A stretch of 64,000 nucleotides of DNA from Nitrososphaerales archaeon (GTDB taxonomy: Archaea > Thermoproteota > Nitrososphaeria > Nitrososphaerales > JACPRH01): NCBI GenBank assembly GCA_030745655.1, contig JASLOE010000001.1, forward strand, positions 5,351-69,350, given 5' to 3'. The notes beneath the pieces were generated by a model. It was not told where the DNA came from. It saw only the letters and a program-made list of their open reading frames with translations, and searched no databases. The position numbers were made by a program, and so were the translations under genes. Position 1 is the first letter of the stretch. The number at the start of each line of letters is the position of its first letter. Below are positions 1-22,789 of the stretch, one piece after another.

Positions 1-1503
1 GAGTTACATTAAGCTTATAGTCATTACCGTTTTCAGCTAAGTTCAATATTTCTATTGCTAGCTTGTTGAGATTAGCATCAGGTTCAGTTACCGAAAGTAC
101 TGCAGGTACACTTGAAGCTGGAGCATAGCTCGCTGCATCAAATGCTACGGATGCTGCAGTCCTCGATAGACTAAATGATGTTTCTGAGTAATGACTTGCT
201 GTAATCGAAACAGGGTCATAGTAAGTGGCTGCAACAGAAGCAGCACTACCCATAGGCACTACTATACCAAGAGCAGCAGTACCGTTCCCTGAAAGGATCG
301 GAGTGTTGCCCGTAGCATTATGCGTAAAGGATACTACACCTGTGAAATTACCAGAACTTATTGCGGTTTCAGCAACAGTAAGGTCTCCAACTAAGGAGGT
401 TGTCCCTACTGTAATTGCGAGATGAACTGTGAAATTGCTTATTGCTGCAGTTGTTCCAGGAGTGTCTCTAGCTAGACCATTTAGATTTCTGTCTTCATCA
501 AGTAATTGTACTGTTACACCAGTAGTGAATGTTCCTGTTGATGAAAGAGCACTGATAACACCATCTGTAGATCTTATTTGAACATCTACAGAGCCTGGTG
601 AGGCTGTATTACCGGTATCGTCATCAGTTACTGCGACGGTTATTAAATCACCATGTGCTTCTGCAATGGTGGTTAAGCCGACGCTTAAGGTAAAGATTCC
701 TGTGTTTACCCCGGTCTCTGTGAAGTTACCCATCCCATTTACAACTGTCTGTGCTACCCCATTCAAACTAAGGGCTAGACTAGAATAGTTGTAGTTTCGT
801 AGGGCTGATGTATCTGCTACAGTTGGATCCAAGTTTTCAGTTGGATCTGTGACCGTGATAGACAAAGTTGCATTTATTGGTGCTGTAGATCGATCAGCTG
901 TGACACTTGCAGCTTTTGTGTTTGCATGAGCAAGTGTGACAGTTTCACTTCTTTCTTGATATGTAATCACTACAGCTGTATCAGCAGTAGCGACTGTGAA
1001 CATTTGGATGAATGGCCATTGACCAGAATCAGTACACGCTGTACTGTTTATGGCCTCATCGCCACCTTGGCAGGAAGATGCTGAAGGTGCAACAGATGGG
1101 ATACTTGATCCAACTCTGTACCTATCAGAATAACCTGCGCCTCCTTCACCACCGTCTCCACCGACCCTTGAGTCTGCAGTTACGTTAGCTATGTAGGCAA
1201 CAAATGTTCCCGCAATAGGGGTTTTAGTCATATTGATTACTTCTTGACCGGCAAGATCTGTAACGACTGAAGGGAATGAACCGGTAGCGATACCAGCATC
1301 AACAACCCTCACCTCGATTACATTATCTTCACCAAGTTGTGTCTGCGTTACACTCAAGTAGGAATTCGCAGCTGCTGCAGGCATAACTACAAGTGGTATT
1401 AGGCCTACAAACATGCTGGTTATGAGTATAGTCGCAAGTGCGAGTGATGTCGTTTTCGTTATAATGTTAGTTCGTACTTTATTATTTACTTTAAGAGAAT
1501 TCA
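1..1503 (-). CDS. Large secreted or surface-anchored glycoprotein candidate (S-layer-like); the 3' end runs off the window
   Basis: The minus-strand frame is open from the ATG at 1503 to the window edge. Hand translation gives MNSLKVNNKVRTNIITKTTSLALATILITSMFVGLIPLVVMPAAAANSYLSVTQTQLGEDN... The N-terminus has a hydrophobic signal/anchor followed by an Ala run. The rest is T/S/A/G/V-rich with many N-x-S/T sequons. It is missing from the ORF track only because there is no stop codon in the window. Confidence 0.6.
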
Positions 1504-1726
1504 TATTACGTTCTCGGCAACTTAGCTTTCAACATCCATATTTAACGTTTATGGACAATTCATCCATCTTTTAGGCTGAATTACCTCTATTTCAGCCCTC
1601 TTTGCCTGAAACTCCTTAATAAAGGCTCAGAATTATTCAAATACATATAAGGGTTATGGTTAGAGAATCCAGTAACCTCTTCCCACACCAAGAAAAATAA
1701 AAGTATCTATTAAATAATACACTGAT

Positions 1727-2260
1727 ATGCCACAAAAACCTAAAGAAAAAATCCTTAAAATAGAAACAATCTTCAATGGAAATATTATAAATTTACAGAA
1801 AAGAACTATCAAACTTCAATCTGGAATAACTATTCAAAGAGAAATAATAAAACATCCCGGTTCAGCAGCCATAATCCCTCTTATCGACAATGAAACCATA
1901 ATTCTAATAGAACAATACAGAAGTGCACTAGGTAAGGTAATACTTGAGATACCTGCAGGAACATTAGAACATGATGAACAACCAGTGGACTGCGCAAAGA
2001 GAGAACTTTTAGAGGAAACAGGGTATCAAGCAACCAACTTTAGAGAACTTCTTGTTAACTACACAACACCAGGATATAGCGATGAAAAAATGTACTTCTA
2101 CCTAGCAACAGATCTTATACATAAAGAACAAAAACTTGAAAGAGATGAAAATATTAGAACAAGAAAGATAAAGTTAGACGAGATAAACCTAATGATTAAG
2201 AATGGGGAAATAAGTGATATGAAAACGATATGTGGAATATCTAGATTAATCTCTGAATAA
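1727..2260 (+). CDS. NUDIX hydrolase (ADP-ribose pyrophosphatase-like)
   Basis: NUDIX box GTLEHDEQPVDCAKRELLEETGY (Gx5Ex7REUxEExGU); 177 aa. Confidence 0.85.
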   Translation: MPQKPKEKILKIETIFNGNIINLQKRTIKLQSGITIQREIIKHPGSAAIIPLIDNETIILIEQYRSALGKVILEIPAGTLEHDEQPVDCAKRELLEETGYQATNFRELLVNYTTPGYSDEKMYFYLATDLIHKEQKLERDENIRTRKIKLDEINLMIKNGEISDMKTICGISRLISE

Positions 2261-2265
2261 CAAGA

Positions 2266-3435
2266 TTATACAAACGGATTTTCCCATTTTAGAATGACGT
2301 CAGCAACCTCAGGTCTAATCATTTCAGGAGGAGGTTTTTCACCTTTCAGTAGTATATCCCGAAGCTTGGTACCACTAAACTCCACCCTAACTTCAGGATC
2401 TGGGCATTCTAAATTCTGCGCAGGAGCATGTGGACAAGTTTTATCATTAGCTGAACTTCCACACGTTCTACAATAGAAGAATGATGGAAAAAATAGAGGA
2501 GATATACCTAAATCTGGAAACTTTTCAAAAATTTCTTGAGCTGCATACGGAGGATAGAAATTACCTACCCCGGCATGATCACGTCCCAAAATAAAATGAG
2601 TACAACCATAATTCTTCCTAATTATCGCATGAAAAATAGCTTCTCTAGGTCCGGCATATCGCATCTCAGTTTGAAGAATTGCTAACATTGCACGTTCCTT
2701 AAGATAATAATTATCTATTAGCACACGGTATGTTTGTAGAATTACTTCATCCTTAAAATCACCGGGTTTTTTTCTTCCAATTACTGGATTAATAAAAAGT
2801 CCATCCACAAATGTGAGAGCAGTTTTTTGAACATACTCATGACCCACATGCGGAACATTCCTAGTTTGAAAACCTACAATAGTTTTCCATCCCCTATCAT
2901 CAAAAGATTTTCGAGTTTCAGCAGGAGATAAATGATATCTCGGATACAGAGACTTAGGAGAATCAACTAGATTTATTGTTCCACCCAACAAAATATCTTT
3001 GAGTTTAAAGGCTTCAGTAACTCCAGGGTGATGCATATCAATAGTTCCGTATACTTTTTCAGCTAACTCTTTTTTATTGAATGAATATTTATCTTTAACA
3101 TCCATTGTTGCAATAAATTGGTCACCGGAGCTTAATCTCACAGTATCCCCTATAGATACTTTTTTGGCTTCTTCATCGGCGATATCAAGAATTATAGGGA
3201 TAGTCCAAGCCTTATCATTATTTAATCGCATAGAATCCATTACATTATCAAGGTCATTTTGAACTAGAAATCCTTCAAGTGGACTATAGACACCTGTTGC
3301 TATATTTTCAATCTCTTTTACTCGCCGTTGATTTACTTTTATTTCTAATAGCTCGTTTTTTTCATTTATTAGTTTCTCTTTTACATCATCTTTCAAAACT
3401 CTGTTAATTAGATTTCCACCATGCGGGTTAATCAT
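2266..3435 (-). CDS. sat: Sulfate adenylyltransferase (ATP sulfurylase)
   Basis: Motifs QTRNVPHVGHEYV and GRDHAGVG, with a PUA-like N-terminal part. There is a C-terminal Cys/His cluster (CRTCGSS..KTCPH). Confidence 0.9.
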   Translation of the reverse strand: MINPHGGNLINRVLKDDVKEKLINEKNELLEIKVNQRRVKEIENIATGVYSPLEGFLVQNDLDNVMDSMRLNNDKAWTIPIILDIADEEAKKVSIGDTVRLSSGDQFIATMDVKDKYSFNKKELAEKVYGTIDMHHPGVTEAFKLKDILLGGTINLVDSPKSLYPRYHLSPAETRKSFDDRGWKTIVGFQTRNVPHVGHEYVQKTALTFVDGLFINPVIGRKKPGDFKDEVILQTYRVLIDNYYLKERAMLAILQTEMRYAGPREAIFHAIIRKNYGCTHFILGRDHAGVGNFYPPYAAQEIFEKFPDLGISPLFFPSFFYCRTCGSSANDKTCPHAPAQNLECPDPEVRVEFSGTKLRDILLKGEKPPPEMIRPEVADVILKWENPFV

Positions 3436-3564: not shown

Positions 3565-3840
3565 GTGTTGCCTGCACATAGTATAGATGAGATAAAGTTG
3601 CCGATTTCATTCGTTCTTGTAAATAGTGATCCTGAAGTTGAGGAAGAACTGATGGAAGATCTAATAAAAGTAGAAGGAGTTAAAGAGGTTCATTCAGTCT
3701 ATGGAATATATGATTTTATTGTGAAAGTTGAAGCTGAATCTCTAGAAGAATTGAAAAACACAATAACTTGGAAAGTTAGAAGGTTAAGCAAAGTTAAAGC
3801 TAGCGTAACAATGGTTGTCGCTCAATCCCGTACATCTTAA
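3565..3840 (+). CDS. Stand-alone Lrp/AsnC ligand-binding (RAM) domain protein
   Basis: The C-terminal ~85 aa of ORF 3421..3840 (ISFVLVNSDPEVEEEL..VKEVHSVYGIYDFIVKVEAESLEELKNTI) resemble a RAM domain. The ORF's N-terminal part overlaps the sat start and looks non-coding. An in-frame GTG at 3565 lies downstream of an AT-rich TATA-like stretch near 3519-3545. The start is uncertain. Confidence 0.5.
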   Translation: MLPAHSIDEIKLPISFVLVNSDPEVEEELMEDLIKVEGVKEVHSVYGIYDFIVKVEAESLEELKNTITWKVRRLSKVKASVTMVVAQSRTS

Positions 3841-3968: not shown

Positions 3969-4685
3969 TTAGTCTAATTTTGCTTCAATCAGTGCACCCC
4001 ATTTTGTCCACATTTCGTCTTTAAAACCACCACCCTCTGGAAGTTTAGAGACATTTACATTATTCTCTGGAATCAATTCTTTTAATAACGCCTCATAGTT
4101 CCTCCGCCAGTGTCTCTCGTAAACTCCAAGAGAATTTTGTGAGTCAAAAGAATGCCACTCTACAAAATAAATTCTCCGCCGAGCAATTCTGACCATATCA
4201 TTCACTACTTTCCTAATTTTATCTGGACCAATATACATCAGAACCGCATCTGTAAACACAATATCAAAACTATCATTCAAAAACGATTCGAGATCATCTG
4301 CTTTTCCCACTGATAGCTTTACGTTCAATTTACCTTCTTGTTTTAACCATTCGTTTCCGTTTTTTACCGACCATTTGTTGATATCTACACCAGATAAATC
4401 TGCTTCCGGAAATTTCTCAGAAAGCAGATATAAATTAGGTCCATCGCCGCAACCTACTTCAAGCAAATTCTTAATTTTACGAAATTTTGAGATTTTCGCA
4501 ACAAGAAAGCCTCGATGGGGATGATTTAGGGTAGTGGAACCACTTGCATAAGAAGAGGATTGGGAAGCCCATCGTCTCTCTTCAAATTTTGTACCAACAA
4601 GAAATCCTATAATTGACATGAAACCACGGTAAGTCCACCTCACAATTCGATACATTATGGCATACCTTCTTAGAAAAGATATCAA
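3969..4685 (-). CDS. Class I SAM-dependent methyltransferase
   Basis: Motif I LLEVGCGDGPN and a downstream FDIVFTDAVLMY. It is the last gene of the minus-strand glycan operon. The start may be an internal Met. Confidence 0.75.
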   Translation of the reverse strand: MISFLRRYAIMYRIVRWTYRGFMSIIGFLVGTKFEERRWASQSSSYASGSTTLNHPHRGFLVAKISKFRKIKNLLEVGCGDGPNLYLLSEKFPEADLSGVDINKWSVKNGNEWLKQEGKLNVKLSVGKADDLESFLNDSFDIVFTDAVLMYIGPDKIRKVVNDMVRIARRRIYFVEWHSFDSQNSLGVYERHWRRNYEALLKELIPENNVNVSKLPEGGGFKDEMWTKWGALIEAKLD

Positions 4686-4709
4686 TTGTTATCTCAATCT
4701 AGTTAAATT

Positions 4710-5816
4710 TCAATTATAGAAGTTGTGAAGAGAATCAACAACAAAGCCAACATCAGAATCACTGAGCTCAGGGTGCAACGGAAGTGAAAGAACTTCACGA
4801 GAAATCTGTTCTGTTAAAGGTAGATTAAAGTGATCTAAATTCAGAGCTTTGTGTTTATGAAGAGGTTTAGGCCAAGAAACTAAAATTTCTATCCCTTGAT
4901 TGCGAAGATAGGCCACAAGTTCGTCCCGATTATTGGAACGGATCACATAATTTTGATAGACATCATAAAAGTTACCTTCGTTTGGTGCAGGAGGCAATTG
5001 CAACGAAGCTAGGTCGGATAACCCTTCATGGTAGAGGTTTGCTATTTCTCTTCGTCGTTCTATCCATTTGGGTAGGTGATTTAGCTTAATTTTCAGAATT
5101 GCGGCATGTAAATTATCAAGGCGACTATTGAAACCATGAAACAGAAATGCTCCGGTTTCTCTATCTTGGCCATGATCTCTAAGCAAGAATAACTTCTTGG
5201 CGATTTCCTTGTTATTTGTAACTATCATTCCACCATCTCCAAGAGTTCCTAAGATTTTTGCAGGATAGAAGCTGAAACAACCTGTCAAGCCAAAACTACC
5301 AGCTCTACGTCCTTTGTATCGTGCGCCTACTGCTTGTGCAGCATCTTCAATAATATGGAGACCATGATCAGATGCTATTTTCATTATCGTATCCATATCA
5401 CAGATTCTACCATTAAGATGAACAGGAATAATGCCTTTTGTTTTCTCTGTAATTGCTGCTTCAATACAACTTACATCAATATTATGATATTGGTCGATAT
5501 CAACAAGAACTGGCTTTGCATTACATTGAGAAATTGTTGATACTGTTGCAGCAAAAGTATGAGATACTGTAATTACTTCATCACTTTCAGTAATATTAGC
5601 AGCTTTTAATGATAAAAAGAGAGCATCTGTTCCGTTCGCAACTCCTATAGCATACTTTACATCCAAGAACTTGGCGAAATTCTTTTCGAATTCTTTAAGA
5701 TGCCTTCTAAGGATATAGTCACCACCAATTAGCACTTCCTGAATAACAGAATCAACCTCCGATTTGATCTTTCTATAGTGCTCAGGAAAATCTACAAAAC
5801 GGACTCGATACCCCAT
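4710..5816 (-). CDS. DegT/DnrJ/EryC1/StrS-family PLP-dependent sugar aminotransferase
   Basis: Family-typical sequence: GVANGTDAL, IIEDAAQAVGA, and the SFYPAKILG lysine region; 368 aa. Confidence 0.9.
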   Translation of the reverse strand: MGYRVRFVDFPEHYRKIKSEVDSVIQEVLIGGDYILRRHLKEFEKNFAKFLDVKYAIGVANGTDALFLSLKAANITESDEVITVSHTFAATVSTISQCNAKPVLVDIDQYHNIDVSCIEAAITEKTKGIIPVHLNGRICDMDTIMKIASDHGLHIIEDAAQAVGARYKGRRAGSFGLTGCFSFYPAKILGTLGDGGMIVTNNKEIAKKLFLLRDHGQDRETGAFLFHGFNSRLDNLHAAILKIKLNHLPKWIERRREIANLYHEGLSDLASLQLPPAPNEGNFYDVYQNYVIRSNNRDELVAYLRNQGIEILVSWPKPLHKHKALNLDHFNLPLTEQISREVLSLPLHPELSDSDVGFVVDSLHNFYN

Positions 5817-5820
5817 TTTA

Positions 5821-6795
5821 TTACGACACCAATTCTCTAATCTTTGAAATTATTGTCTTAGATGTCGGATAATAAACTCCTTCCAAAGAAGAACTTGCTG
5901 GGGCAGGTGAATCTGGCAACGAAACACGCATAATAGGAGTTTTAAGATACTTGAATGCTTCATTCCCCACTATTGAAGAAACCTCTGCACCAATACCGGA
6001 ACTTGGCCAACTTGCATCAACCACGATAAATCTGCCTGTTTTTTTTACTGAATTTATTAAAATGTCCTTATCTAATGGTTTTACAGAACGCATATCAATA
6101 ACTTCAGTCTCGATTCCTTCATCGGCAAGGCTATCAGCAGCTTTAATCACCTCACCCACCATATATGAAGTTGCAGCTATTGTTACATCTTTTCCATTTC
6201 TTCTTAAAGCCCCTTCTCCTATTGGAACATTAAATAGTTCCTCAGGCACATCATCTTCACTCTCGTAAAGCCAACGATCATCAATATAGATAACAGGACC
6301 ATCATCCTCAACTGCTGAATTTAGGAGACCTTTGGCATCGTAAGCTGAACTAGGCATCACAACTTTTAATCCAGGAATATGTGTAAACATAGCTTGCAAA
6401 CTTTGAGAATGCTGAGCAGCTTGTTCGCCTCCTCTATTTATAATAGTCCAAACGGTCAACGGAACATTCAGCTGACCACCAAACATATAATGCCAACTCC
6501 CAGCGTGATTAATCAATTGATCCATAGCATAATGCATAAAATCCATTCTCGGAAAGAGCAAAACTGGACGCATACCTGCCAAAGCTGCCCCTATTGCCAC
6601 ACCTGTAATGCCGTTTTCAGAAACTGGAGTATCGATAACTCGATTAGAACCAAATTCACTTAGAAGCCCGGTAGTTGTACATCCAACATACCATGGACTA
6701 GTAATTCCTTGACCAATTAAGAATACTCGATCATCCTTCTTCATTAGCTGACGCAAAGTTTGATTTATCGATTTATTATATTGAATTCTTGTCAT
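5821..6795 (-). CDS. ThDP-dependent 2-oxoacid dehydrogenase E1 component, beta subunit-like (transketolase Pyr/C domains)
   Basis: VIDTPVSENGITGVAIGAALAGMRPV and a C-terminal transketolase-like domain; 324 aa. It starts 18 nt downstream of the alpha subunit gene. Confidence 0.85.
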   Translation of the reverse strand: MTRIQYNKSINQTLRQLMKKDDRVFLIGQGITSPWYVGCTTTGLLSEFGSNRVIDTPVSENGITGVAIGAALAGMRPVLLFPRMDFMHYAMDQLINHAGSWHYMFGGQLNVPLTVWTIINRGGEQAAQHSQSLQAMFTHIPGLKVVMPSSAYDAKGLLNSAVEDDGPVIYIDDRWLYESEDDVPEELFNVPIGEGALRRNGKDVTIAATSYMVGEVIKAADSLADEGIETEVIDMRSVKPLDKDILINSVKKTGRFIVVDASWPSSGIGAEVSSIVGNEAFKYLKTPIMRVSLPDSPAPASSSLEGVYYPTSKTIISKIRELVS

Positions 6796-6813
6796 TGATG
6801 AAACTCCTCTGAA

Positions 6814-7803
6814 TTAGCTAACTTTGAAAACATAATCAAGTAGACTTTCTTCCTGTGGAAATGGACTGTTCTTTGCAAACTTCAAGGATTCATCTACTTC
6901 TTTTTCAATTTCACTACGAATACTAAGCATTTCTGATTTTGAAAGAAAATTATTATCTAACAATTTCTTTTCCAGTCGTTTGATTGGGCCTTTTTCTTTC
7001 CAAAATGCTAATTCTTCTTTACTTCTGAGTCCTGTATTCAAATCATCATTAGGACCGACATGCCCACGCCACCTGTAAGTCATGCATTCGATCAAAGTAG
7101 GCCCTTCTCCTTGTCTAGCAGTATCTACTGCTTTTTTGGCTACTTTGAAAACTTCGGTTACATCATTCCCATCAACTTGAATTCCAGGTATTCGAAATAT
7201 CTCGGCTTTCTTCCTGATATCTGTGTCAGCTAAATGATCAGAAATGTGGACATGAGTAGAATAAAGGTTATTCTCACATACAAAAACAATAGGCAACTTT
7301 TTGAGTGCTGCAAAATTAAGAGATTCATACCAAACTCCCTCATTAGTAGCACCATCACCGAAGAAAGCAACCGAAACATTATCAGTTTTCCGAATTGAAA
7401 AAGATAAAGCTGCACCCACAGCAAGAGGAATAGACCCAGCCACAATTGCGGAACTCCCGATAAAACCCATTTCTGGAAAAGAGAGATGCATGGATCCGCC
7501 TCGTCCCTTGGAGCAACCTGTTACTTTACCGTAAAGTTCTGCCATCAAAGCATCCAAATTACAACCCTTAGCAATATAATGACCGTGAGAACGGTGTGTG
7601 CTGAAAACGTAATCATCAGTTCTAAGGGCAGCACATACCCCTGTTGCAATAGCCTCTTGTCCAATATATAGATGGCAAGGACAAATTATCTCATTTTTTC
7701 TAACAAGATCTCCAACCTTTTCCTCAAATAATCGGATCCTAAGCATAGATTTATACATAGCCTGCAATTGATTTAATGATAAATGCACCGTTCTTTCAGT
7801 CAT
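6814..7803 (-). CDS. ThDP-dependent 2-oxoacid dehydrogenase E1 component, alpha subunit-like
   Basis: ThDP-binding motif GDGATNEGVWYESLNFAALKKLPIVFVCENN; 329 aa. Confidence 0.85.
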   Translation of the reverse strand: MTERTVHLSLNQLQAMYKSMLRIRLFEEKVGDLVRKNEIICPCHLYIGQEAIATGVCAALRTDDYVFSTHRSHGHYIAKGCNLDALMAELYGKVTGCSKGRGGSMHLSFPEMGFIGSSAIVAGSIPLAVGAALSFSIRKTDNVSVAFFGDGATNEGVWYESLNFAALKKLPIVFVCENNLYSTHVHISDHLADTDIRKKAEIFRIPGIQVDGNDVTEVFKVAKKAVDTARQGEGPTLIECMTYRWRGHVGPNDDLNTGLRSKEELAFWKEKGPIKRLEKKLLDNNFLSKSEMLSIRSEIEKEVDESLKFAKNSPFPQEESLLDYVFKVS

Positions 7804-7821
7804 AAAAAAGAGCCTTCTTGC

Positions 7822-8784
7822 TCAAAGTGTTATTCGTTCTTCTGTTCCAAAATATTTATACTGCTGAATGAAAGTTTTTAATCCTTCTTTTATACCTATT
7901 TTTGGAGTCCATTTAAGAATCTCATTTGCTTTATTTGCGTTAGCTATGAGTCTGTCGACCTCTCCTACCCTCGGGGAAACATTTACGGGTTTTAGGTTAC
8001 TACTTTTCCCACATAACTCAATAATCAAATTTGCAAGATCTAAAATAGATATTTCTTTACCAGTTCCAAAATTGATTGGTTCTGAAAGAGGCTTTTCATA
8101 TTTGAAGAGCAAATCGTATGCGCGCACGACATCATCTATATGAGTATAATCACGTGTCTGAGAACCAGTTCCATAAATAATTGGAGGAAAATTGCTCAAA
8201 ATCCTCCTAGTGAATATTGAAATAACACCACCGTAACCAACAGACTTCTGTCGTGGCCCATAAACGTTAAACATGCGGGGAATAACTACATTCAATCCAT
8301 AAGTTTTAGCATATGCATAACATAGCCTATCAGCAGCAATTTTACTTGCACCGTAAGGGTGTGGAGCATTTAAGGGATGCTTTTCATCAATGGGAGCATA
8401 CATTGCTGAACCATATACTTCACTTGTTGAGGCGTGGATAACTTTTTTGACATCATAAAGCCTGGCCATCTCTAGAATATTTTGGGTCCCCATAATATTA
8501 ATATCAAAAGTAAGCTTAGGTTCAACATATGACCTATCCACATGGATTTGTGCAGCAAGATTCAATATGGAATCTACGTCTTTAATGACCCGATCAAGAA
8601 GATCAGAATCTCTAATATCACCTTTTACAAGCTTAAAATTCTTATAATCGAGTAAATGCTTGATATTTGTTAGACTACCACTTAGAAAATTATCAAGACA
8701 TATCACTGTATGGCCTTCTTTGATATACTTCTCGCAAAGACTACTTCCAATAAAACCAGCTCCACCAGTTATCAGTAACTTCAT
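7822..8784 (-). CDS. NAD-dependent NDP-sugar epimerase/dehydratase (extended SDR, UXS/4,6-dehydratase-like)
   Basis: Rossmann motif GGAGFIGS, ASTSEVYG, and catalytic YGASK. Confidence 0.9.
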   Translation of the reverse strand: MKLLITGGAGFIGSSLCEKYIKEGHTVICLDNFLSGSLTNIKHLLDYKNFKLVKGDIRDSDLLDRVIKDVDSILNLAAQIHVDRSYVEPKLTFDINIMGTQNILEMARLYDVKKVIHASTSEVYGSAMYAPIDEKHPLNAPHPYGASKIAADRLCYAYAKTYGLNVVIPRMFNVYGPRQKSVGYGGVISIFTRRILSNFPPIIYGTGSQTRDYTHIDDVVRAYDLLFKYEKPLSEPINFGTGKEISILDLANLIIELCGKSSNLKPVNVSPRVGEVDRLIANANKANEILKWTPKIGIKEGLKTFIQQYKYFGTEERITL

Positions 8785-9902
8785 CGTGTACTCCTTTTAG
8801 ATAAAACCTCATAAAGGTTTTCCATCTTTGCCATCTCTTTCAAATGATTTAGTTTCTTGTTAATGATGTCTTGGTTTATTTCCCCAAATTTGGTCCGTTC
8901 TTTTTCATGATCAATTAGATAGATAATATTTTCAGCTAATGAGTTAGTATCTTTGGCAGCAAATAGAAATCCATTAACCCCATTCTCCACCCATTCCTTA
9001 TTATCTCCAAAATCAGTTATAATAACTGGTACACCACAAGCCATTGCCTCTGCCGTACTTGCAGCTAACCCTGCATCTGATAATGATGAAGATACATATA
9101 TGTCAGATGAAGCAAGATATTTCGCGACTTCCTTGTTTGGAATTGAACCTATAAAGCAAATATTCTGGGAAACTTGAAGTTTTTCAGCTAACCCCCTAAG
9201 AAACATCTCTTGTGATCCTTCTCCAACAACCACAAACTTTGCTTTTGGAACTTTCTTTAACACTATCCTTACTGATTTAATTAAAGTTTCAACATCATAG
9301 ATAGGTTCCAGATTTCTAAGACTTATAATAATAGGTGAATTATCAAAAGTAAATCTTGCTCTTAATTCGGTACTTCTTTGCTTTGGATTAAATATCTGAG
9401 TATCTGTTCCAAAGTATATCAAATGTATTTTTGAATGAATTACTCCGAACTTTTCCAAAGATTTTATCATATGTTTTGCATCGCAGGTGATAAGATCTGC
9501 CTTTTTCAAAGCATATTGCACCATATATCGGAGTATTCGAAATTGACCTGGATTAATCAAGATATCTGATCCCCAAGTAGTTAAGATCATTGGATGATAA
9601 TTTGTTAATGCTGCAATGAATCCATAATGAGATGCATAATGTGCATGAACTATATCAGGCATTTCTTTCGCTAATATTCTTCTTACACTCAGAATTGTAA
9701 ATGGAGAGAAAACATATCTAAAAGCAGAATCTTTACCAGCTAAAGGCATAGGTATTTCCCCAACTAACTTATACTGTTTAATACCCATTTCATCATTCAG
9801 TTCGCTTGTTATTGCAAACACGTCATGCCCCCTTTTCTTGAAGTAATTGATCCATCTGATAGTGTGACAAGATTTACAATCAGCAAAATAGGCAATTTTC
9901 AT
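8781..9902 (-). CDS. Glycosyltransferase, GT-B fold (GT4-like)
   Basis: The C-terminal domain has the family-typical SLSDAGLAASTAEAMACGVPVIITD..EWV. It overlaps the SDR gene by 4 nt and is the first gene of the operon. Confidence 0.85.
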   Translation of the reverse strand: MKIAYFADCKSCHTIRWINYFKKRGHDVFAITSELNDEMGIKQYKLVGEIPMPLAGKDSAFRYVFSPFTILSVRRILAKEMPDIVHAHYASHYGFIAALTNYHPMILTTWGSDILINPGQFRILRYMVQYALKKADLITCDAKHMIKSLEKFGVIHSKIHLIYFGTDTQIFNPKQRSTELRARFTFDNSPIIISLRNLEPIYDVETLIKSVRIVLKKVPKAKFVVVGEGSQEMFLRGLAEKLQVSQNICFIGSIPNKEVAKYLASSDIYVSSSLSDAGLAASTAEAMACGVPVIITDFGDNKEWVENGVNGFLFAAKDTNSLAENIIYLIDHEKERTKFGEINQDIINKKLNHLKEMAKMENLYEVLSKRSTR

Positions 9903-10043
9903 TTACTCATCATTTATTCCTAACAGACCACTAATATTTGGTGACACGATTTATAACATTATGCGAACTGAGATCATCAATAAAGAATTTCCAACTCCCT
10001 TAAAAAGATGTTTTTATCTTCAGTGGATGTGCTGACATAAACT

Positions 10044-11360
10044 ATGAAGAAGGTCTTGATCATAACTAATCTTGCACATGCTGAACCTCGTATACCAGGC
10101 CTTATGAAATATCTCCCTGATTTTGGTTGGAACACGACTGTTTTGACAACATCAGAATACAATACGCACCTTTTTGATGATGATAATGTTAGACTGGACA
10201 AGAAAAATAGGATCATTATAGTACGTTACTTTGATATTCTTAATCACCTCATTATGATGATAAAGAAGATATTTGGTTATATTCCAGAAGAGAGCCTGAA
10301 AAGACAGGCGGATATACGGTTTGGTTTAAATTCACCAAAAACAAATATCATTAATCACCCTCTAAATTGGTTTAAAGAGGTTCTTTATTATCCAGATCAA
10401 GATAAGTTTTGGAAAAAATCCGCAATCATTACAGGTTTTAAACTTATCAGAAATCAACAAATAAATATGATAATGAGCAGTTCTTCACCTGTCACAAGTC
10501 ATATTATCGCTAAAGAATTAAAAAAAAGATGCGGTATCCCTTGGATAGCGGATTTGAGGGACCTTTGGTCACAAAACCATAATTACCCATATAGCTCATT
10601 CAGGAACTCGATTGATAGAAAACTTGAAGTAAAAACCCTCTCTAATGCAGATGCTTTAGTTACTGTTTCGAAGCCTTTGGTGAATCAATTAAAAAAAATA
10701 CACCCGAATAAAACTGTTTTAGAAATTACAAATGGTTTTCATCTAGATGAAATGAAAAAAGATTGTAATTTAACATCTAAATTCACTATCACCTATACTG
10801 GTCAAATATATTTTGGAAAACAAGATCCTACAAATCTCTTCGCTCCTTTGAAAGAATTAATCTTAGAAGGCGACATCGACCAAAATGATGTGCAAGTCAG
10901 ATTCTATGGTTATTTTGATGCTAGACTGACAAAAGTAATTCGAGAATATTTGTTAACTGATGTTGTTAAACAATATGGAGTAGTATCAAGGGAAGTAGCC
11001 CAACAAAAGCAGAGAGAATCACAACTTTTACTTTTTTTAAATTGGGAAGATAAAAGAGAAAAGGGAATATACCAAACAAAAATCTTTGAATATCTCGCAG
11101 CGAACCGTCCAATATTTGCAGTAGGTGGGTTTGGTAATGATGTGATTGAGAGATTACTTAATGAAACAAAAGCAGGAATTTATGCCCAAAAAGAAGACAT
11201 TAAAATAACCCTTAAGAAAATATACAATGAGTACAAACAAAAAAAAGAGGTCAGATGCCATGTAAGGCCAGAAAGTATCAATAGATATAGCTATCAAGAA
11301 AATGCTAAAACATTAGCTAAAAATTTTGATAAAATATTGGCGAATAGAAAACATCAATAA
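10044..11360 (+). CDS. Glycosyltransferase-like protein (GT-B, GT4-like N-terminal domain)
   Basis: N-terminus KVLIITNLAHAEPRIPG.., SSSSPVTSHIIAKELKKRCGIPWIADLRDLW, and a C-terminal Rossmann-like half (IFEYLAANRPIFAVGG). It is divergent from the GT4 operon. Confidence 0.6.
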   Translation: MKKVLIITNLAHAEPRIPGLMKYLPDFGWNTTVLTTSEYNTHLFDDDNVRLDKKNRIIIVRYFDILNHLIMMIKKIFGYIPEESLKRQADIRFGLNSPKTNIINHPLNWFKEVLYYPDQDKFWKKSAIITGFKLIRNQQINMIMSSSSPVTSHIIAKELKKRCGIPWIADLRDLWSQNHNYPYSSFRNSIDRKLEVKTLSNADALVTVSKPLVNQLKKIHPNKTVLEITNGFHLDEMKKDCNLTSKFTITYTGQIYFGKQDPTNLFAPLKELILEGDIDQNDVQVRFYGYFDARLTKVIREYLLTDVVKQYGVVSREVAQQKQRESQLLLFLNWEDKREKGIYQTKIFEYLAANRPIFAVGGFGNDVIERLLNETKAGIYAQKEDIKITLKKIYNEYKQKKEVRCHVRPESINRYSYQENAKTLAKNFDKILANRKHQ

Positions 11361-11423
11361 ATTAAAAAAAGGCTCTTTTTAACATATGTTACTTATAGGT
11401 AATTAAAGAGTATAAAGCGATTG

Positions 11424-12053
11424 ATGAATAGACCCCCAAAACAAAGTAATATTGATGAGATGCAATTTATTTCATACTATCATCAAATTGAATTACCGAC
11501 AAGAATAGGAGCAAAAAAAATATTAGAAATAGGAATTGGTGATAAGACAACATCGAATTATTTAAAACAACACAATTTTGAAATAATCACCTGTGATATA
11601 GATAAAAACAGAACACCGAATATTGTAGCAGATATCAGAAATCTACCATTTAAGAATAATAGCTTTGACACCATAATAACATTTGAGGTATTAGAGCATT
11701 TGCCATGGGATTACATAAATCAAATTATTGAGGATCTACATAGAATTACAGGAAAATTTGTCATTATCTCGGTACCTTACTCATCCCATCATTTCGAACT
11801 CGTAATTAAATTTCCTTTTATTCGAAAAATCTTAAAAAAAGATTTCATAAATATATTCTTTCGAATACCATTTCCAGTTCGCGACATTAAATCAATTGAT
11901 GAACCCCATTACTGGGAAATTGGGAGAAAAAGTTATTCTTTAAAGAAACTAAAGAAAGTTTTATTGAGAAAATTCAAGATAATTATTGAAACAAAACCTT
12001 TGTTACATTCATACCATTACTTTTTTGTGTTAGAAAAGATGAAAAGCAAATAA
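11424..12053 (+). CDS. Class I SAM-dependent methyltransferase (type 11-like)
   Basis: ILEIGIGDKTT motif I and FDTIITFEVLEHL. I chose the ATG at 11424 over the TTG at 11421. Confidence 0.75.
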   Translation: MNRPPKQSNIDEMQFISYYHQIELPTRIGAKKILEIGIGDKTTSNYLKQHNFEIITCDIDKNRTPNIVADIRNLPFKNNSFDTIITFEVLEHLPWDYINQIIEDLHRITGKFVIISVPYSSHHFELVIKFPFIRKILKKDFINIFFRIPFPVRDIKSIDEPHYWEIGRKSYSLKKLKKVLLRKFKIIIETKPLLHSYHYFFVLEKMKSK

Positions 12054-12109
12054 ATGGGTTAAAAAATAGAAACTAACTGTTGACAAAATTGTTTTGGTAT
12101 CCAAAATAG

Positions 12110-12433
12110 TTAATCATTTTTTTCATCATCAATTTTTAGATATTTCATTATTTTTTCTTGATTTTCTATTATTTTCAATAGAGGTGGGTTGTATTTGGTT
12201 TGTTCAACAAAATCTGTCTCGAGCTGAGTTTTAAAATGCCATCTACCAACAATAATAGCTACTGGAATATACAAAAAGAGAAACACAAGAACAAACATTG
12301 TAAGACTAGTGAATATGGCATTGAAAAAACTCACTTGTTCTACAAGTAAACGGTAAAAAATTAAGATAAAGTTAGTTAAAGCCGTTGTATATACGAGGTA
12401 GGTTCCATGTCCTGAACGGAAGTATACCCACAT
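12110..12433 (-). CDS. Small integral membrane protein, unknown function
   Basis: There are two clear hydrophobic helices (YLVYTTALTNFILIFYRLL; LTMFVLVFLFLYIPVAIIVG). I recognise no motif. Confidence 0.45.
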   Translation of the reverse strand: MWVYFRSGHGTYLVYTTALTNFILIFYRLLVEQVSFFNAIFTSLTMFVLVFLFLYIPVAIIVGRWHFKTQLETDFVEQTKYNPPLLKIIENQEKIMKYLKIDDEKND

Positions 12434-20457: not shown

Positions 20458-21147
20458 ATGTTCAATCTTAAAACACCAGAAAATATTGAGTCACTTCCCA
20501 AGAATATAGTGAAGAAAATTAACAAAAGAATCAAATATGTTAATGATGGAATTTCTAGAATTGAGAAAGCAACAGGAATTACTTACCCACCATATAATAT
20601 TAGGCCAGTGATAATTTTATCAGAAAGTGAGGTTGAATTAGGACAAAGAGGGGTAATATATGCAAGAGTTATTCCAGAAGAAGGGCCAGCTGGTCTTCTT
20701 ATTTCGGTTGAGCTCTCGGCACCTTTAGTTGCATTTGGATTAAAGGGAACAATACAAGCTGTTTTGGCACACGAATTCATGCATTATGTGGAACTTGTAA
20801 GGAAATTTACTACTTTAGATATTCTTTCAGATGAAACTGTAGGTACATTACACGAAACTATTTACTCAGATTACGAGAGATTATACGAACCCAAATGGCT
20901 TTTCCAAGATAGAGGACTAATAAGACTTCTCAATAACAGATTTCTTGATGGACTTGTAGATGATAAATTAAATAAGAATACGTTAAAAAAATGGGTAGAG
21001 AAGGGTCTCCCTTCTGTAACTCTACCTCCAGATGCAAATGTTGTTAGAATTCCCATTGCCGCAATACTAAAAACTAATTTCGACCCGTTGCTAAAGAATA
21101 GGCTTGAAGAACTTGAAAAGATAAGGGCCGTAGATAATGCAAAATAA
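20458..21147 (+). CDS. Putative zinc metallopeptidase-like protein (HExxH), unknown family
   Basis: A single HExxH (AVLAHEFMHYVELV) sits in a 229-aa soluble protein. The gene's 3' end overlaps the next gene by 11 nt. Confidence 0.55.
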   Translation: MFNLKTPENIESLPKNIVKKINKRIKYVNDGISRIEKATGITYPPYNIRPVIILSESEVELGQRGVIYARVIPEEGPAGLLISVELSAPLVAFGLKGTIQAVLAHEFMHYVELVRKFTTLDILSDETVGTLHETIYSDYERLYEPKWLFQDRGLIRLLNNRFLDGLVDDKLNKNTLKKWVEKGLPSVTLPPDANVVRIPIAAILKTNFDPLLKNRLEELEKIRAVDNAK

Positions 21148-22789
21148 ATCAGGTAAAAAAGGGACACTCAGTAAAACGGATACAGAAACATTACTCAGAA
21201 TATCAAAAGAGATATCTTCTAAAAAAACGATTATAGGTGTTGCAGCGTATGGTTCTCAAGTAGCTAATTATGCAACAGAAGATAGTGATTATGATATAAT
21301 TGTTGTGTTAGATAATTATAGTCCTAAAGTAAAATATCGTTACATTAAGGGAGAATTAGAAATATCGGCGCTTCTTGTTGATAAGGAATCAATATTAGCT
21401 GATGCCCAAAAGGCATCTCTTGGAGAATTTGTTGCAGGTAGATTACTTAACATATACTTACCCATTAAAGGTAAAAAATTCTTCAAAGAAGTTGAAAATA
21501 TTATTAAAAAAAGAGTGATAGCTGAATCACTAAATGAGATTGGATCATCTCTGGGTGAATTTTCACAAGAAATATTAATTCCAGTGGAATATTTTCTATA
21601 TGATAAACTCAAGAAACGTTCTTCGATTTATCCTCCTGTTCTTTATAGTTACGCCAAAACTTATGGGGATGAGTTAAGGGCTAAAAACACAGAAGCAGCT
21701 TGTCCAGGATTTCTGGTTGCATTGAAAGACCTAGAATCTAAGAAGTTAATTACTCTGAAAGATGGGTTAGTAAGAATAAAAGATAGTAAATCCAAAGGGT
21801 GGACGACTATTTTTTCAGGAATAATCAAACATACACAAAGAGGGCTAACCCAATATGCTGTCCACGGTTATGCTGGAACAGTTGGTCTCAACATCATAAG
21901 TAAAGAATTGATGTCCAAAATATCTAGAGCAAAGAAGGGATATGAGGTCCCAGAAGTGATAAGAAATCCAAAGTCTCTTTGGAGGCTAAGTGAAGGTGAT
22001 CTTATCGTAGAGGAAGAAGAATGGTTACAGAAAGTTTTTGAACATTTTCAGTTAAAAGGAGATGTTATAACGAATAAGGATAGTATTGGAGATATCTATT
22101 CCTCTTCAAAAGTATATTCTGCTAGCGATAAAGAACAAAATGTAAAGTTCATTGTGAAAAGATTTGTAGACATAAAAGCGATGAAGTGGATTGTTTTGAA
22201 TATCTGGGCATTAATGTCAAAGAGATTCGACATGAGTCCCATATCTAGGCTTTCTAGAGAGTATTCTTCTTTGAAAGAAATTCGAGAAATTGGTCTAAAT
22301 ACACCAAGGGTTTTGTTAGTTGCATTTAATCAAAGAATACTCGTAACTGAATTCATAGAAGGTTCAAATTTGGGAGAGATACTTTCAAAGGTTTTCAAAG
22401 GAGAAAAAAATATGATAAAATACATTAGAATTTATGGAGAAGAATTAGGAAAAGTACATAAATCTGGGTACACACTTGGAGACACTAAACCAAGCAATTC
22501 TATTCTTTCAAAAGGTAAGATATTCTTAATTGATCTTGAGCAAGCTGCAAAGAATGGGGATAAGAGCTGGGATATAGCTGAATTCATTTATTATTCATCA
22601 AAACTTACTTTGGATACTAACGCTGCAAAACAATTGGTTGGAGAATTTCTGGACGGATACTTAGAATATGGTGATAATAAATCTGTAAAAGATGCTCATA
22701 AACTGAAGTATCTTGCTCCATTTCAACCAATAATAGCACCAAATGTTGCTGCAGCAGTTAGAAAAGTAATGAAGAAACGAGCAGAATAA
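21137..22789 (+). CDS. Fusion protein: N-terminal nucleotidyltransferase-fold domain plus C-terminal RIO/Bud32-like kinase domain
   Basis: N-terminus: GVAAYGSQVANYATEDSDYDIIVVLD (a GS..DxD NTase signature) and EFVAGRLLNIYLP. C-terminus: VKFIVKRF (Lys), LGDTKPSN catalytic loop and LIDLEQA metal-binding segment. Confidence 0.7.
   Translation: MQNKSGKKGTLSKTDTETLLRISKEISSKKTIIGVAAYGSQVANYATEDSDYDIIVVLDNYSPKVKYRYIKGELEISALLVDKESILADAQKASLGEFVAGRLLNIYLPIKGKKFFKEVENIIKKRVIAESLNEIGSSLGEFSQEILIPVEYFLYDKLKKRSSIYPPVLYSYAKTYGDELRAKNTEAACPGFLVALKDLESKKLITLKDGLVRIKDSKSKGWTTIFSGIIKHTQRGLTQYAVHGYAGTVGLNIISKELMSKISRAKKGYEVPEVIRNPKSLWRLSEGDLIVEEEEWLQKVFEHFQLKGDVITNKDSIGDIYSSSKVYSASDKEQNVKFIVKRFVDIKAMKWIVLNIWALMSKRFDMSPISRLSREYSSLKEIREIGLNTPRVLLVAFNQRILVTEFIEGSNLGEILSKVFKGEKNMIKYIRIYGEELGKVHKSGYTLGDTKPSNSILSKGKIFLIDLEQAAKNGDKSWDIAEFIYYSSKLTLDTNAAKQLVGEFLDGYLEYGDNKSVKDAHKLKYLAPFQPIIAPNVAAAVRKVMKKRAE

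Follow-up and report, generated by a model that had tools for sequence, protein, structure and literature searches.

The subject of this work is an eight-gene module at positions 3969-12053 of a 64,000-nt stretch of DNA from a Nitrososphaerales archaeon (hereafter the window, to which all coordinates refer). The host is a marine ammonia-oxidizing archaeon, and proteins identical to the E1alpha and GTx proteins of the module are annotated in public data to a marine Nitrososphaerales metagenome-assembled genome (MAG). Six of the genes lie on the minus strand and encode, in order of transcription, a glycosyltransferase (GT4), an extended short-chain dehydrogenase/reductase (SDR), the two subunits of a thiamine diphosphate (ThDP)-dependent enzyme (E1alpha and E1beta), a DegT-family aminotransferase and a methyltransferase (MT1). 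A divergent plus-strand pair then encodes a second glycosyltransferase (GTx) and a second methyltransferase (MT2). The E1 pair is predicted to attach a two-carbon branch to a keto sugar, and the module as a whole to supply a branched amino sugar to an envelope glycan.

The minus-strand genes are tightly packed, with gaps of -4, 18, 18, 4 and 24 nt in transcription order. The last value, between DegT and MT1, holds for a TTG start of MT1; public gene calls place that start at later ATGs. An earlier note on this DNA had described six packed minus-strand genes followed by a divergent glycosyltransferase-like gene and a second methyltransferase. The list of open reading frames (ORFs) gave the same coordinates, strands and gaps, and every domain assignment made in that note was upheld by Pfam and NCBIfam. 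The region between GT4 and GTx is AT-rich and contains the TATA-like elements GTTATAAATC and AAATATTAG facing GT4 and CTTAAAAAG and TTTTTATC facing GTx; the promoters of both transcription units presumably sit there. Forty-eight ORFs of the window were scanned against Pfam, and those outside the module were housekeeping genes or gave no match.

Table 1 Coordinates of the module genes and of nearby features in the window
Feature	Position	Strand	Basis or remark
GT4, GT-B glycosyltransferase of the retaining type, 373 aa	8781-9902	-	First gene of the minus-strand operon; PF00534, PF13477, PF13439
Extended SDR, predicted nucleoside diphosphate (NDP)-hexose(NAc) 4,6-dehydratase, 320 aa	7822-8784	-	PF16363 (254 bits), PF01370
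E1alpha, ThDP-dependent, putative heteromeric alphaKADH2 type, 329 aa	6814-7803	-	PF00676 E1_dh (261 bits)
E1beta, 324 aa	5821-6795	-	PF02779 and PF02780 (transketolase pyrimidine-binding and C-terminal domains)
DegT/DnrJ/EryC1 sugar aminotransferase, pyridoxal phosphate (PLP)-dependent, 368 aa	4710-5816	-	PF01041 (376 bits)
MT1, class I S-adenosylmethionine (SAM) methyltransferase, 216-238 aa depending on start codon	3969-4685	-	PF13649, PF08241
Divergent intergenic region, 141 bp, presumed to hold two promoters	9903-10043	.	Sequence inspection
GTx, second GT-B (GT4-like) glycosyltransferase, 438 aa	10044-11360	+	Weak N-terminal GT4 Pfam matches; predicted fold
MT2, second class I SAM methyltransferase, 210 aa, variable module slot	11421-12053	+	PF08241, PF13649
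Large secreted protein, N-terminal 501 aa, continuing past the window start	1-1504	-	Signal/anchor, 11 N-X-S/T sequons, Thr/Ser/Ala-rich
NUDIX hydrolase	1727-2260	+	Between module and putative S-layer gene
ATP sulfurylase	2266-3435	-	PF01747 and PUA_2; between module and putative S-layer gene
Lrp/AsnC ligand-binding-domain protein, 91 aa, stand-alone, lacking a helix-turn-helix domain	3565-3840	+	PF01037 (46 bits)

An E1 pair outside dehydrogenase complexes

The best Protein Data Bank (PDB) matches of the E1 pair are the human and bacterial E1 components of pyruvate dehydrogenase (PDH) and branched-chain 2-oxoacid dehydrogenase (BCKDH). The fold, the subunit organization, the ThDP motif and the catalytic Glu and His are common to the module pair and to the E1s of PDH, BCKDH and acetoin dehydrogenase. 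In E1alpha the ThDP/Mg motif GDG-X26-NN is unbroken, and in an alignment to the E1beta of G. stearothermophilus the module E1beta retains both the activating Glu of the cofactor (in DTPVSE) and the His of the active site (in QHSQ). Unlike those E1s, however, the module pair lacks E2 and E3 partners, falls in a separate clade, has an E1alpha that scores below the equivalog cut-off of the PDH model TIGR03182 (PDH_E1_alph_y; 361 against 393.85 bits) and carries motif changes in E1beta. E1beta does pass the cut-off of the PDH E1beta model NF006667 (333 against 321 bits), which is a subfamily-level model only.

These scores and the retained catalytic residues would suit an ordinary catabolic E1 acting on pyruvate, acetoin or branched-chain substrates, with E2 and E3 encoded elsewhere and the glycan setting a coincidence. 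The search for partner subunits argues otherwise. When the 64-kb window was searched by tblastn with 46 E2 and E3 proteins from related loci there were no matches at E<=1e-3, and neither DHRxxDG nor GGxCxxxGC, motifs of E2 and E3, occurred in its six frames. E2 and E3 homologues were likewise absent from 86 related loci (789 kb) having E1 subunits at least 55% identical to those of the window. In about 30 loci with E1alpha proteins 43-50% identical, taken from a scan that used a single genome for each GTDB species, E2/E3 genes lie directly 3' of E1beta; these came from Clostridia, Pseudomonadales, a Sulfolobales MAG and a second Bathyarchaeia locus, among others. In the same scan all loci with an E1alpha at least 60% identical carried SDR and DegT genes instead of E2/E3.

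The division is also seen in phylogeny. A neighbor-joining tree of 81 E1alpha sequences (100 bootstraps) placed the window protein in a clade of 39 taxa having only DegT, SDR and GT4 neighbors, whereas 28 of the other 42 taxa had E2/E3 and none had DegT or SDR. The split between sugar-context and E2/E3-linked sequences had bootstrap support of 100/100, as did an 11-taxon module clade that includes the window E1alpha. Sugar-clade E1beta proteins differ systematically at sites that are near-invariant in E2-linked E1beta: GED is replaced by GQG, GG by PW, EHK by DDR and VEE by VDA (residues 29-30, 35, 174 and 261), and the Arg of DDR is invariant in 37 of 37 sugar-clade sequences. Sugar-clade E1alpha proteins have exchanges at residues 41, 97 and 118-124 (Gly41 to Cys, Thr or Ser; Tyr97 to Cys; GNG to SSA near the cofactor loop). 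Exchanges that remove acidic residues could suit an anionic NDP-sugar acceptor.

Because E2 and E3 are absent from the window and from the 86 loci and the pair forms its own 100/100 clade, we conclude that it is not part of a housekeeping 2-oxoacid dehydrogenase complex. The tight operon (gaps of 4-18 nt), a gene order kept across two domains of life and the exchanges in E1beta add to this, and leave a catabolic E1 that happens to lie among glycan genes hardly credible. The earlier note had reported no E2, E3 or lipoyl/dihydrolipoamide component nearby and had judged a 2-oxoacid dehydrogenase unlikely; the tblastn and motif searches bear out the first statement, and the wider set of loci and the tree, in which the window E1alpha stands apart from E2/E3-linked E1s, bear out the second.

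A side observation concerns another E1alpha/E1beta pair lacking E2/E3, on the Streptomyces griseofuscus plasmid pSGRIFU1 (locus L094, 126201-151139), the only Streptomyces plasmid match in a tblastn search of plasmids. This pair has no sugar context. It lies in a polyketide synthase/nonribosomal peptide synthetase setting, with a condensation-domain protein, an acyl carrier protein, a phosphopantetheinyl transferase and ketosynthases as neighbors in a gamma-butyrolactone-regulated cluster, and would be another, non-sugar use of a stand-alone E1 pair.

Conserved order and interchangeable partners

The same arrangement is found at the same genomic position in other Thaumarchaeota, with E1alpha proteins 70-83% identical to that of the window. 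A collinear, single-strand version with the order GT4, SDR, E1alpha, E1beta, DegT, MT1, GTx, and with MT2 at times last, is present in Bathyarchaeia, Methanothrix harundinacea, Thermoplasmatota and three Dehalococcoidia species, and metagenomic contigs gave several dozen further examples of the module. Since GTx, and at times MT2, is collinear with the core in these lineages, the divergent pair of the window belongs to the module. The earlier note had made conservation of gene order in related archaea a check on its proposal, and the order proved to be kept there and in the Dehalococcoidia as well; neither of the two outcomes that it had named as refuting the proposal, partner E2/E3 genes or a housekeeping placement with no conserved context, was observed. 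The recurrence of one order in dozens of independent loci, archaeal and bacterial, is far beyond chance.

Identity to the window proteins is highest in the sugar-forming core and lower in the accessory genes. The SDR is the most conserved (65-91%), and E1alpha (61-83%), E1beta (about 60-83%) and DegT (58-84%) are close behind. GT4, which lies directly upstream of the SDR gene in most module loci, is 44-77% identical, MT1, which follows DegT in most of them, 39-70%, and GTx, which lies 3' of MT1 and collinear with it in other lineages, 42-57%. MT2 is a variable slot: its counterparts are 47% identical in Methanothrix (L014) and 29% in L001, and in L088, L089 and L093 the slot is taken by a Methyltransf_21/FkbM-type enzyme.

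The SDR has the unbroken motifs of its family, a Rossmann GGAGFIGS, an HASTSEVYG containing T-S-E and a YGASK (YxxxK). Alignments to PDB sequences show its T-S-E to be unlike the T-D-E of RmlB (STDEVYG) and unlike the Glu-less motif of 4-epimerases. T-S-E occurs in enzymes of the GMD, UXS and ArnA types. The best NCBIfam match is LegB (TIGR04180; 239 bits, under the 475-bit cut-off), and the protein scores 220 bits against the dTDP-glucose 4,6-dehydratase model, under its cut-off of 365. From these features the SDR is predicted to make an NDP-4-keto sugar as a LegB/GMD-like 4,6-dehydratase. Its neighbors point the same way, because in some loci its place is taken by proteins of the CapD/PglF type, a family of UDP-GlcNAc 4,6-dehydratases. 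Of 37 loci, 28 have the module SDR upstream of E1alpha. A Polysacc_synt_2 protein of the CapD/PglF type precedes E1alpha in L119 and follows E1beta or DegT in L090, L098, L133 and L136.

Exchange is also seen on the other side of the E1 pair. In 50 non-redundant loci having an E1beta at least 55% identical to that of the window and downstream sequence present, the gene 3' of E1beta encoded a DegT protein in 39, an aldo-keto reductase in three (L093, L114 and L138) and a CapD/PglF-type dehydratase in another three. The E1 pairs of the three loci with a 3' aldo-keto reductase are 63-68% identical to the window pair. L093 is the clearest of these: GT4 (44% identical), SDR (65%), E1alpha (68%) and E1beta (65%) stand in the usual order, with the reductase at the DegT position. 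Among loci having a high-identity dehydratase, three of the four possible combinations of dehydratase and tailoring enzyme were found; for the fourth, CapD with an aldo-keto reductase, L090 is the sole example, and its weak reductase match is located upstream of E1alpha. These neighborhoods are most simply read as a three-step core in which a 4,6-dehydratase would provide a keto sugar, E1alpha/E1beta would create a new ketone, and that ketone would be either reduced or transaminated.

An additional gene is present in a subgroup of loci. A 132-aa cupin with the motif FRGGHYHP follows MT1 in L001 (13969-14367), L002 (8750-9148) and L009 (about 11872-12264). In the soil and groundwater subgroup this protein could act on the sugar as a ketoisomerase or epimerase and so alter the product. 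A 3,4-ketoisomerase was considered as a core step that would explain the C-3-like relationships of DegT, and was set aside since the cupin is confined to these three soil/groundwater thaumarchaeal loci and is found neither in the window nor in the other module loci.

A predicted route to a branched amino sugar

Stand-alone E1alpha/E1beta pairs have a described chemistry. Enzymes of this type, named alphaKADH2 in the classification of ThDP enzymes, use pyruvate to place a C2 branch on keto sugars, at C-3 or C-4, in the pathways to avilamycin, paulomycin, aldgamycin, kosinostatin, trioxacarcin and kibdelomycin, and the kibdelomycin enzyme KbDH-alpha/beta accepts pyruvate and ketone acceptors in vitro (PMC12247030). 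The branch ketone is later reduced, methylated, oxidized or transaminated, kibdelomycin being the transaminated case (PMC12247030); the amycolose of this antibiotic carries a 3-C-(1-aminoethyl) branch (PMC10055692). In paulomycin the aldo-keto reductase Pau7 reduces the C-4' acetyl branch made by Pau11/12, which are homologues of AviB1/B2 of avilamycin (PMC4753412). The module pair shares with this class adjacent E1alpha and E1beta genes (18 nt apart), the ThDP/Mg and catalytic residues, the absence of E2/E3 and a place in a sugar gene cluster, between a predicted keto-sugar-forming enzyme and a putative ketone-tailoring one.

The earlier note had named AviB1/AviB2 as a precedent for its E1 pair, and that precedent is indeed in the literature (PMC4753412, PMC12247030). 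The alternation of DegT with aldo-keto reductase, and of SDR with CapD, around orthologous E1 pairs makes the analogy stronger, since the alternation of tailoring enzymes would match, by analogy, the two documented fates of a branch ketone in paulomycin and kibdelomycin. AviB serves well for the branching by an E1 pair, but the amination step brings the module closer to kibdelomycin than to avilamycin. KbDH-alpha/beta with its transaminase resembles the module in having an E1 pair that lacks E2/E3 and is followed by amination of the branch ketone, as is predicted here. The kibdelomycin enzymes, however, serve an actinomycete antibiotic and act at C-3 of a 2,6-dideoxy sugar, whereas the module is archaeal, its partners point to C-4 of a 6-deoxy-hexose(NAc), and it has an envelope-glycan setting with two glycosyltransferases and two methyltransferases. 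For AviB1/AviB2 and for Pau11/Pau12 with Pau7 the proposed product is a C-4 acetyl branch derived from pyruvate, as predicted for the module, and the three loci with an aldo-keto reductase 3' of the E1 pair are arranged like paulomycin where the window has an aminotransferase instead. The avilamycin and paulomycin acceptors are 2,6- or 2,3,6-deoxy sugars and the products secondary metabolites, unlike those expected of the module.

In the proposed pathway the SDR would convert an NDP-hexose, probably an NDP-N-acetylhexosamine, to the NDP-4-keto-6-deoxy sugar. E1alpha/E1beta, acting as an alphaKADH2-type ThDP carboligase independent of E2 and E3, would decarboxylate pyruvate, and the resulting hydroxyethyl-ThDP carbanion would add to the C-4 ketone to give a tertiary alcohol bearing an acetyl branch. 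DegT would then convert the branch ketone to a 1-aminoethyl group, MT1 and perhaps MT2 would methylate the product on N or O, and GT4 and GTx would transfer the sugar, or its neighbor, onto a lipid-linked glycan. The sugar would probably end on the candidate S-layer protein encoded about 2.5 kb away or on another envelope glycan. We put the probability of the whole chain, in which a 6-deoxy-hexose(NAc) gains an acetyl branch at C-4 and is afterwards aminated and methylated for use in an envelope glycan, at roughly 0.55. The substrate, the branch position, the action of DegT on the branch carbonyl, the nucleotide carrier, the sites of methylation and the final acceptor are predictions.

The role of DegT is the step most open to another reading. 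The protein has the PLP lysine (motif FSFYPAK) and is for this reason a transaminase rather than a dehydrase of the His type; a pyridoxamine phosphate-dependent 3-dehydrase of the RfbH/ColD type, as in the yersiniose pathway, is ruled out by the same residue. Among solved structures it comes nearest to 7b0d (334 bits), QdtB (292), WlaRG (272), DesV (270) and WbpE (260), and C-4 aminotransferases score 113-205 bits; a literature search on PDB entries 7B0D and 7N63 found no relevant paper. The best NCBIfam matches are PseC, LegC, WecE and ArnB. These relatives, being ring C-3 and C-4 sugar aminotransferases, raise the possibility that DegT aminates the C-4 or C-3 ring ketone of the SDR product to give an ordinary 4- or 3-amino-6-deoxy sugar that is N-methylated, with the E1 pair acting on another molecule. 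The E1 pair might then branch a second pool of the same keto sugar, so that two different sugars are transferred, or produce a substituent of the acyl or acyloin kind. The presence of two enzymes each for glycosyl and for methyl transfer would be in keeping with two sugar products. In deoxysugar pathways, enzymes of the aldo-keto reductase family are active at ring positions too. The gene neighborhoods, on the other hand, favor coupled steps. The E1 pair adjoins DegT in 39 of the 50 loci, and an aldo-keto reductase replaces DegT in an otherwise identical cassette, as expected if both process a ketone made by E1. Both fates of an acetyl branch are documented, reduction by Pau7 and transamination in kibdelomycin. 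Moreover, the ThDP carbanion requires a carbonyl acceptor, and amination of the sole ring ketone would take it away. We therefore consider ring amination unlikely, though it deserves serious attention, and note that the C-3-type relatives of DegT neither contradict nor support a branch-ketone substrate.

A third possibility is chain extension of a sugar aldehyde in the manner of 1-deoxy-D-xylulose-5-phosphate synthase (DXS), followed by amination at the terminus by DegT to give a higher-carbon sugar with a CH3-CH(NH2)-CH(OH)- tail. The E1 subunits share homology with the domains of DXS and transketolase and match PF13292, PF00456 and the dxs models, and the earlier note too had allowed for a C2-extended sugar. 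However, none of the module enzymes has a sugar aldehyde as its predicted product, 4,6-dehydratase-type enzymes, whose products are C-4 ketones, occupy the partner slot, and all characterized alphaKADH2 sugar enzymes branch at ring ketones (PMC12247030). Chain extension is thus quite improbable.

The SDR and DegT matches also brought nonulosonic acid synthesis into consideration. LegB/LegC, PseB/PseC and ArnA/ArnB likewise pair an SDR-made NDP-4-keto sugar with a DegT enzyme able to aminate it, and MT1 weakly matches the pseudaminic-acid-associated methylase TIGR03587 (54 bits, under the cut-off). The module differs from the nonulosonic-acid and Arn pathways in having an E1 pair between SDR and DegT and in scoring far under the family cut-offs. 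No NeuB-type synthase or CMP-sugar synthetase was found in the scanned window ORFs or in the Pfam-annotated module loci that were looked up, and no formyltransferase in the scanned window ORFs. A nonulosonic-acid pathway was rejected on these grounds, the LegB, PseC and Pse methylase matches all being far under cut-off and accompanied by no NeuB-type synthase or CMP-transferase.

Several points weigh against the C-4 acetyl-branch pathway or its envelope setting. The SDR is far under the LegB cut-off and its T-S-E is common to the UXS and ArnA decarboxylases; it might be a decarboxylase of that type yielding a 4-keto-pentose. DegT is nearest, among solved structures, to ring C-3 aminotransferases, a relationship that suits classical ring amination no less well than amination of a branch. 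The likeness to AviB, Pau and KbDH is one of domains, motifs, context and described chemistry, and the function of the E1 pair across the clade is a predicted one. No sugar nucleotidyltransferase, flippase, initiating transferase or AglB was found among the Pfam-scanned window ORFs, and S-layer N-glycosylation was undetected in Nitrosopumilus piranensis, a cultured marine relative (PMC12153357). Finally, few Nitrososphaerales species representatives have the module, with only 2 such loci among the 80 retained from the GTDB scan.

Glycan setting, spread and neighboring genes

The rarity of the module in Nitrososphaerales, together with its position in bacteria, fits a self-contained, horizontally moving envelope-glycan cassette. 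In bacteria, Dehalococcoidia among them, the E1 pair sits within big polysaccharide clusters having genes for Wzx, Wzz, Bac_transf, GT2, PIG-L and deacetylase proteins. Public metagenomes contain at least 120 protein clusters that are at least 64% identical to the window E1alpha.

The nature of the glycosyltransferases bears on the destination of the sugar. GT4 is closest among solved structures to BshA-type enzymes (2jjm/3mbo; 94 bits). GTx, a member of a family of 2,709 homologues, gave only N-terminal GT4 matches below cut-off in Pfam and only spurious matches in a sequence search of the PDB. An AlphaFold2 model of GTx (pLDDT 90, pTM 0.88) was used in a Foldseek search, and the top hits were BshA, MshA, PimA and PglA (probability 1.00, E about 1e-14, TM 0.6-0.75). 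Judged by this model, GTx is a second GT-B glycosyltransferase having the two-Rossmann-domain fold of GT4 members. BshA and MshA glycosylate small molecules, and their closeness to both module enzymes in sequence and fold could mean that the product is a soluble glycoside, either a thiol cofactor like bacillithiol or mycothiol or a compatible solute, and no surface glycan. The module of the window also stands alone among housekeeping genes, and neither flippase nor oligosaccharyltransferase nor initiating transferase was found in the Pfam-scanned ORFs. However, PglA and PimA, which use lipid-linked acceptors, are equally close folds, the bacterial counterparts lie within large polysaccharide clusters and the thaumarchaeal module adjoins an S-layer gene. 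A small soluble glycoside is consequently very improbable.

The S-layer gene in question is SlaA-like in Thaumarchaeota. In the window the corresponding position, outside the module, is held by a large secreted protein which is likely a candidate S-layer glycoprotein and a possible acceptor of the glycan, as judged from its sequence and context. Its syntenic counterparts are of 1165-1194 aa in L004 and L088, and in L001 the counterpart has a PF28202 SlaA-like annotation.

The chemistry proposed here has precedents in antibiotics; the interest of the module lies in its archaeal and inter-domain spread, the surface-glycan setting, the exchange of slots and the size of the uncharacterized clade. 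According to a 2025 review, alphaKADH2 enzymes belong mainly to antimicrobial specialized metabolites, and branching in surface glycans is the work of the unrelated YerE-like enzymes (PMC12247030), which carry out ThDP-dependent acyl transfer to an NDP-4-keto sugar for lipopolysaccharide (LPS), for example in yersiniose A (PMC9306805). YerE/YerF and ErwE/MygE thus resemble the module in adding an acyl group by ThDP chemistry to an NDP-4-keto sugar destined for a cell-surface polysaccharide. YerE-type enzymes, however, are single-chain members of the acetolactate-synthase-like decarboxylase superfamily, whereas the module encodes an E1alpha/beta heteromer and would cross that divide. One N-glycan has been described in the Nitrososphaerota, that of Nitrososphaera viennensis (PMC12153357), and searching the literature for archaeal glycans with C-branched sugars yielded no relevant report.

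We tentatively suggest, as a possibility somewhat short of even, that a distinct and abundant alphaKADH2 clade forms the core of a mobile module in Thaumarchaeota, Bathyarchaeia, methanogens, Thermoplasmatota and S-layer-bearing Dehalococcoidia, and gives their envelopes a sugar of the 4-C-(1-aminoethyl)-6-deoxy-hexose(NAc) type. If so, Archaea would have their first C-C-branched sugar, one of a type new to any surface glycan, and the envelopes of archaea and environmental bacteria would gain a class of C-branched aminoethyl monosaccharides. This would also mean that a PDH-type E1 was recruited beyond antibiotics for primary cell-surface glycan synthesis, and that a complete sugar-tailoring module moved between domains among S-layer organisms. 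The clade would then hold diverse ketone-accepting ThDP carboligases with swappable dehydratase, reductase and transaminase partners, of use in making chiral tertiary alcohols and amino sugars. Archaeal surface glycans, above all those of ammonia oxidizers, are almost unexplored, and the proposed sugar provides mass-spectrometry targets for the glycan in uncultured marine archaea.

Small genes interrupt the module in some loci. Toxin-antitoxin-type genes (UPF0175/DUF3368 and NTP_transf_2/HEPN) and 23S_rRNA_IVP genes are inserted in L089 (11088-11845 and 14480-15459), L092 (8953-9429) and L093 (1741-2136), even between E1alpha and E1beta, which suggests that small selfish elements often insert into the cassette. 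In L091 (1-5322) two nucleotidyltransferases, a DUF711-methyltransferase fusion, a CDP-alcohol phosphatidyltransferase and a carbamoyltransferase fragment lie 5' of the module, and a polysaccharide pyruvyl transferase lies 3' of it; these neighbors hint at phospho- or lipid-linked assembly in some hosts.

A related pairing is present in a cultured bacterium. Plasmid AZO_p6 of Azospirillum lipoferum 4B (L095, 36485-55432) has genes for an oxidoreductase, E1alpha, E1beta and DegT in this order beside a GT41/TPR pair, a methyltransferase and sulfotransferases, and E1alpha matches were found on 27 Azospirillum plasmids. The E1alpha/beta-DegT pairing is perhaps used there in flagellin or LPS glycosylation, and this organism may offer an experimentally tractable relative.

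On the MT1 side of the module the stand-alone Lrp/AsnC-domain protein is found at the same position in other Thaumarchaeota (L001, L002, L004 and L088) and might serve the module or the genes around it as a regulator or as a sensor of small molecules. The ATP sulfurylase and NUDIX hydrolase genes are syntenic in related Thaumarchaeota as well; no adenosine 5'-phosphosulfate (APS) kinase was seen nearby. The other flank holds thrC and the rest of the threonine operon. Elsewhere in the window are genes for translation factors, ArgRS, FolD, enzymes of F420 and CoA biosynthesis, CTP synthase, SMC and similar proteins, and no further glycan genes were found outside the module among the Pfam-scanned ORFs. 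Unrelated to the module is a 550-aa protein (21137-22789, plus strand), an unusual fusion of an N-terminal Pol-beta-type nucleotidyltransferase to a C-terminal RIO1-like kinase.

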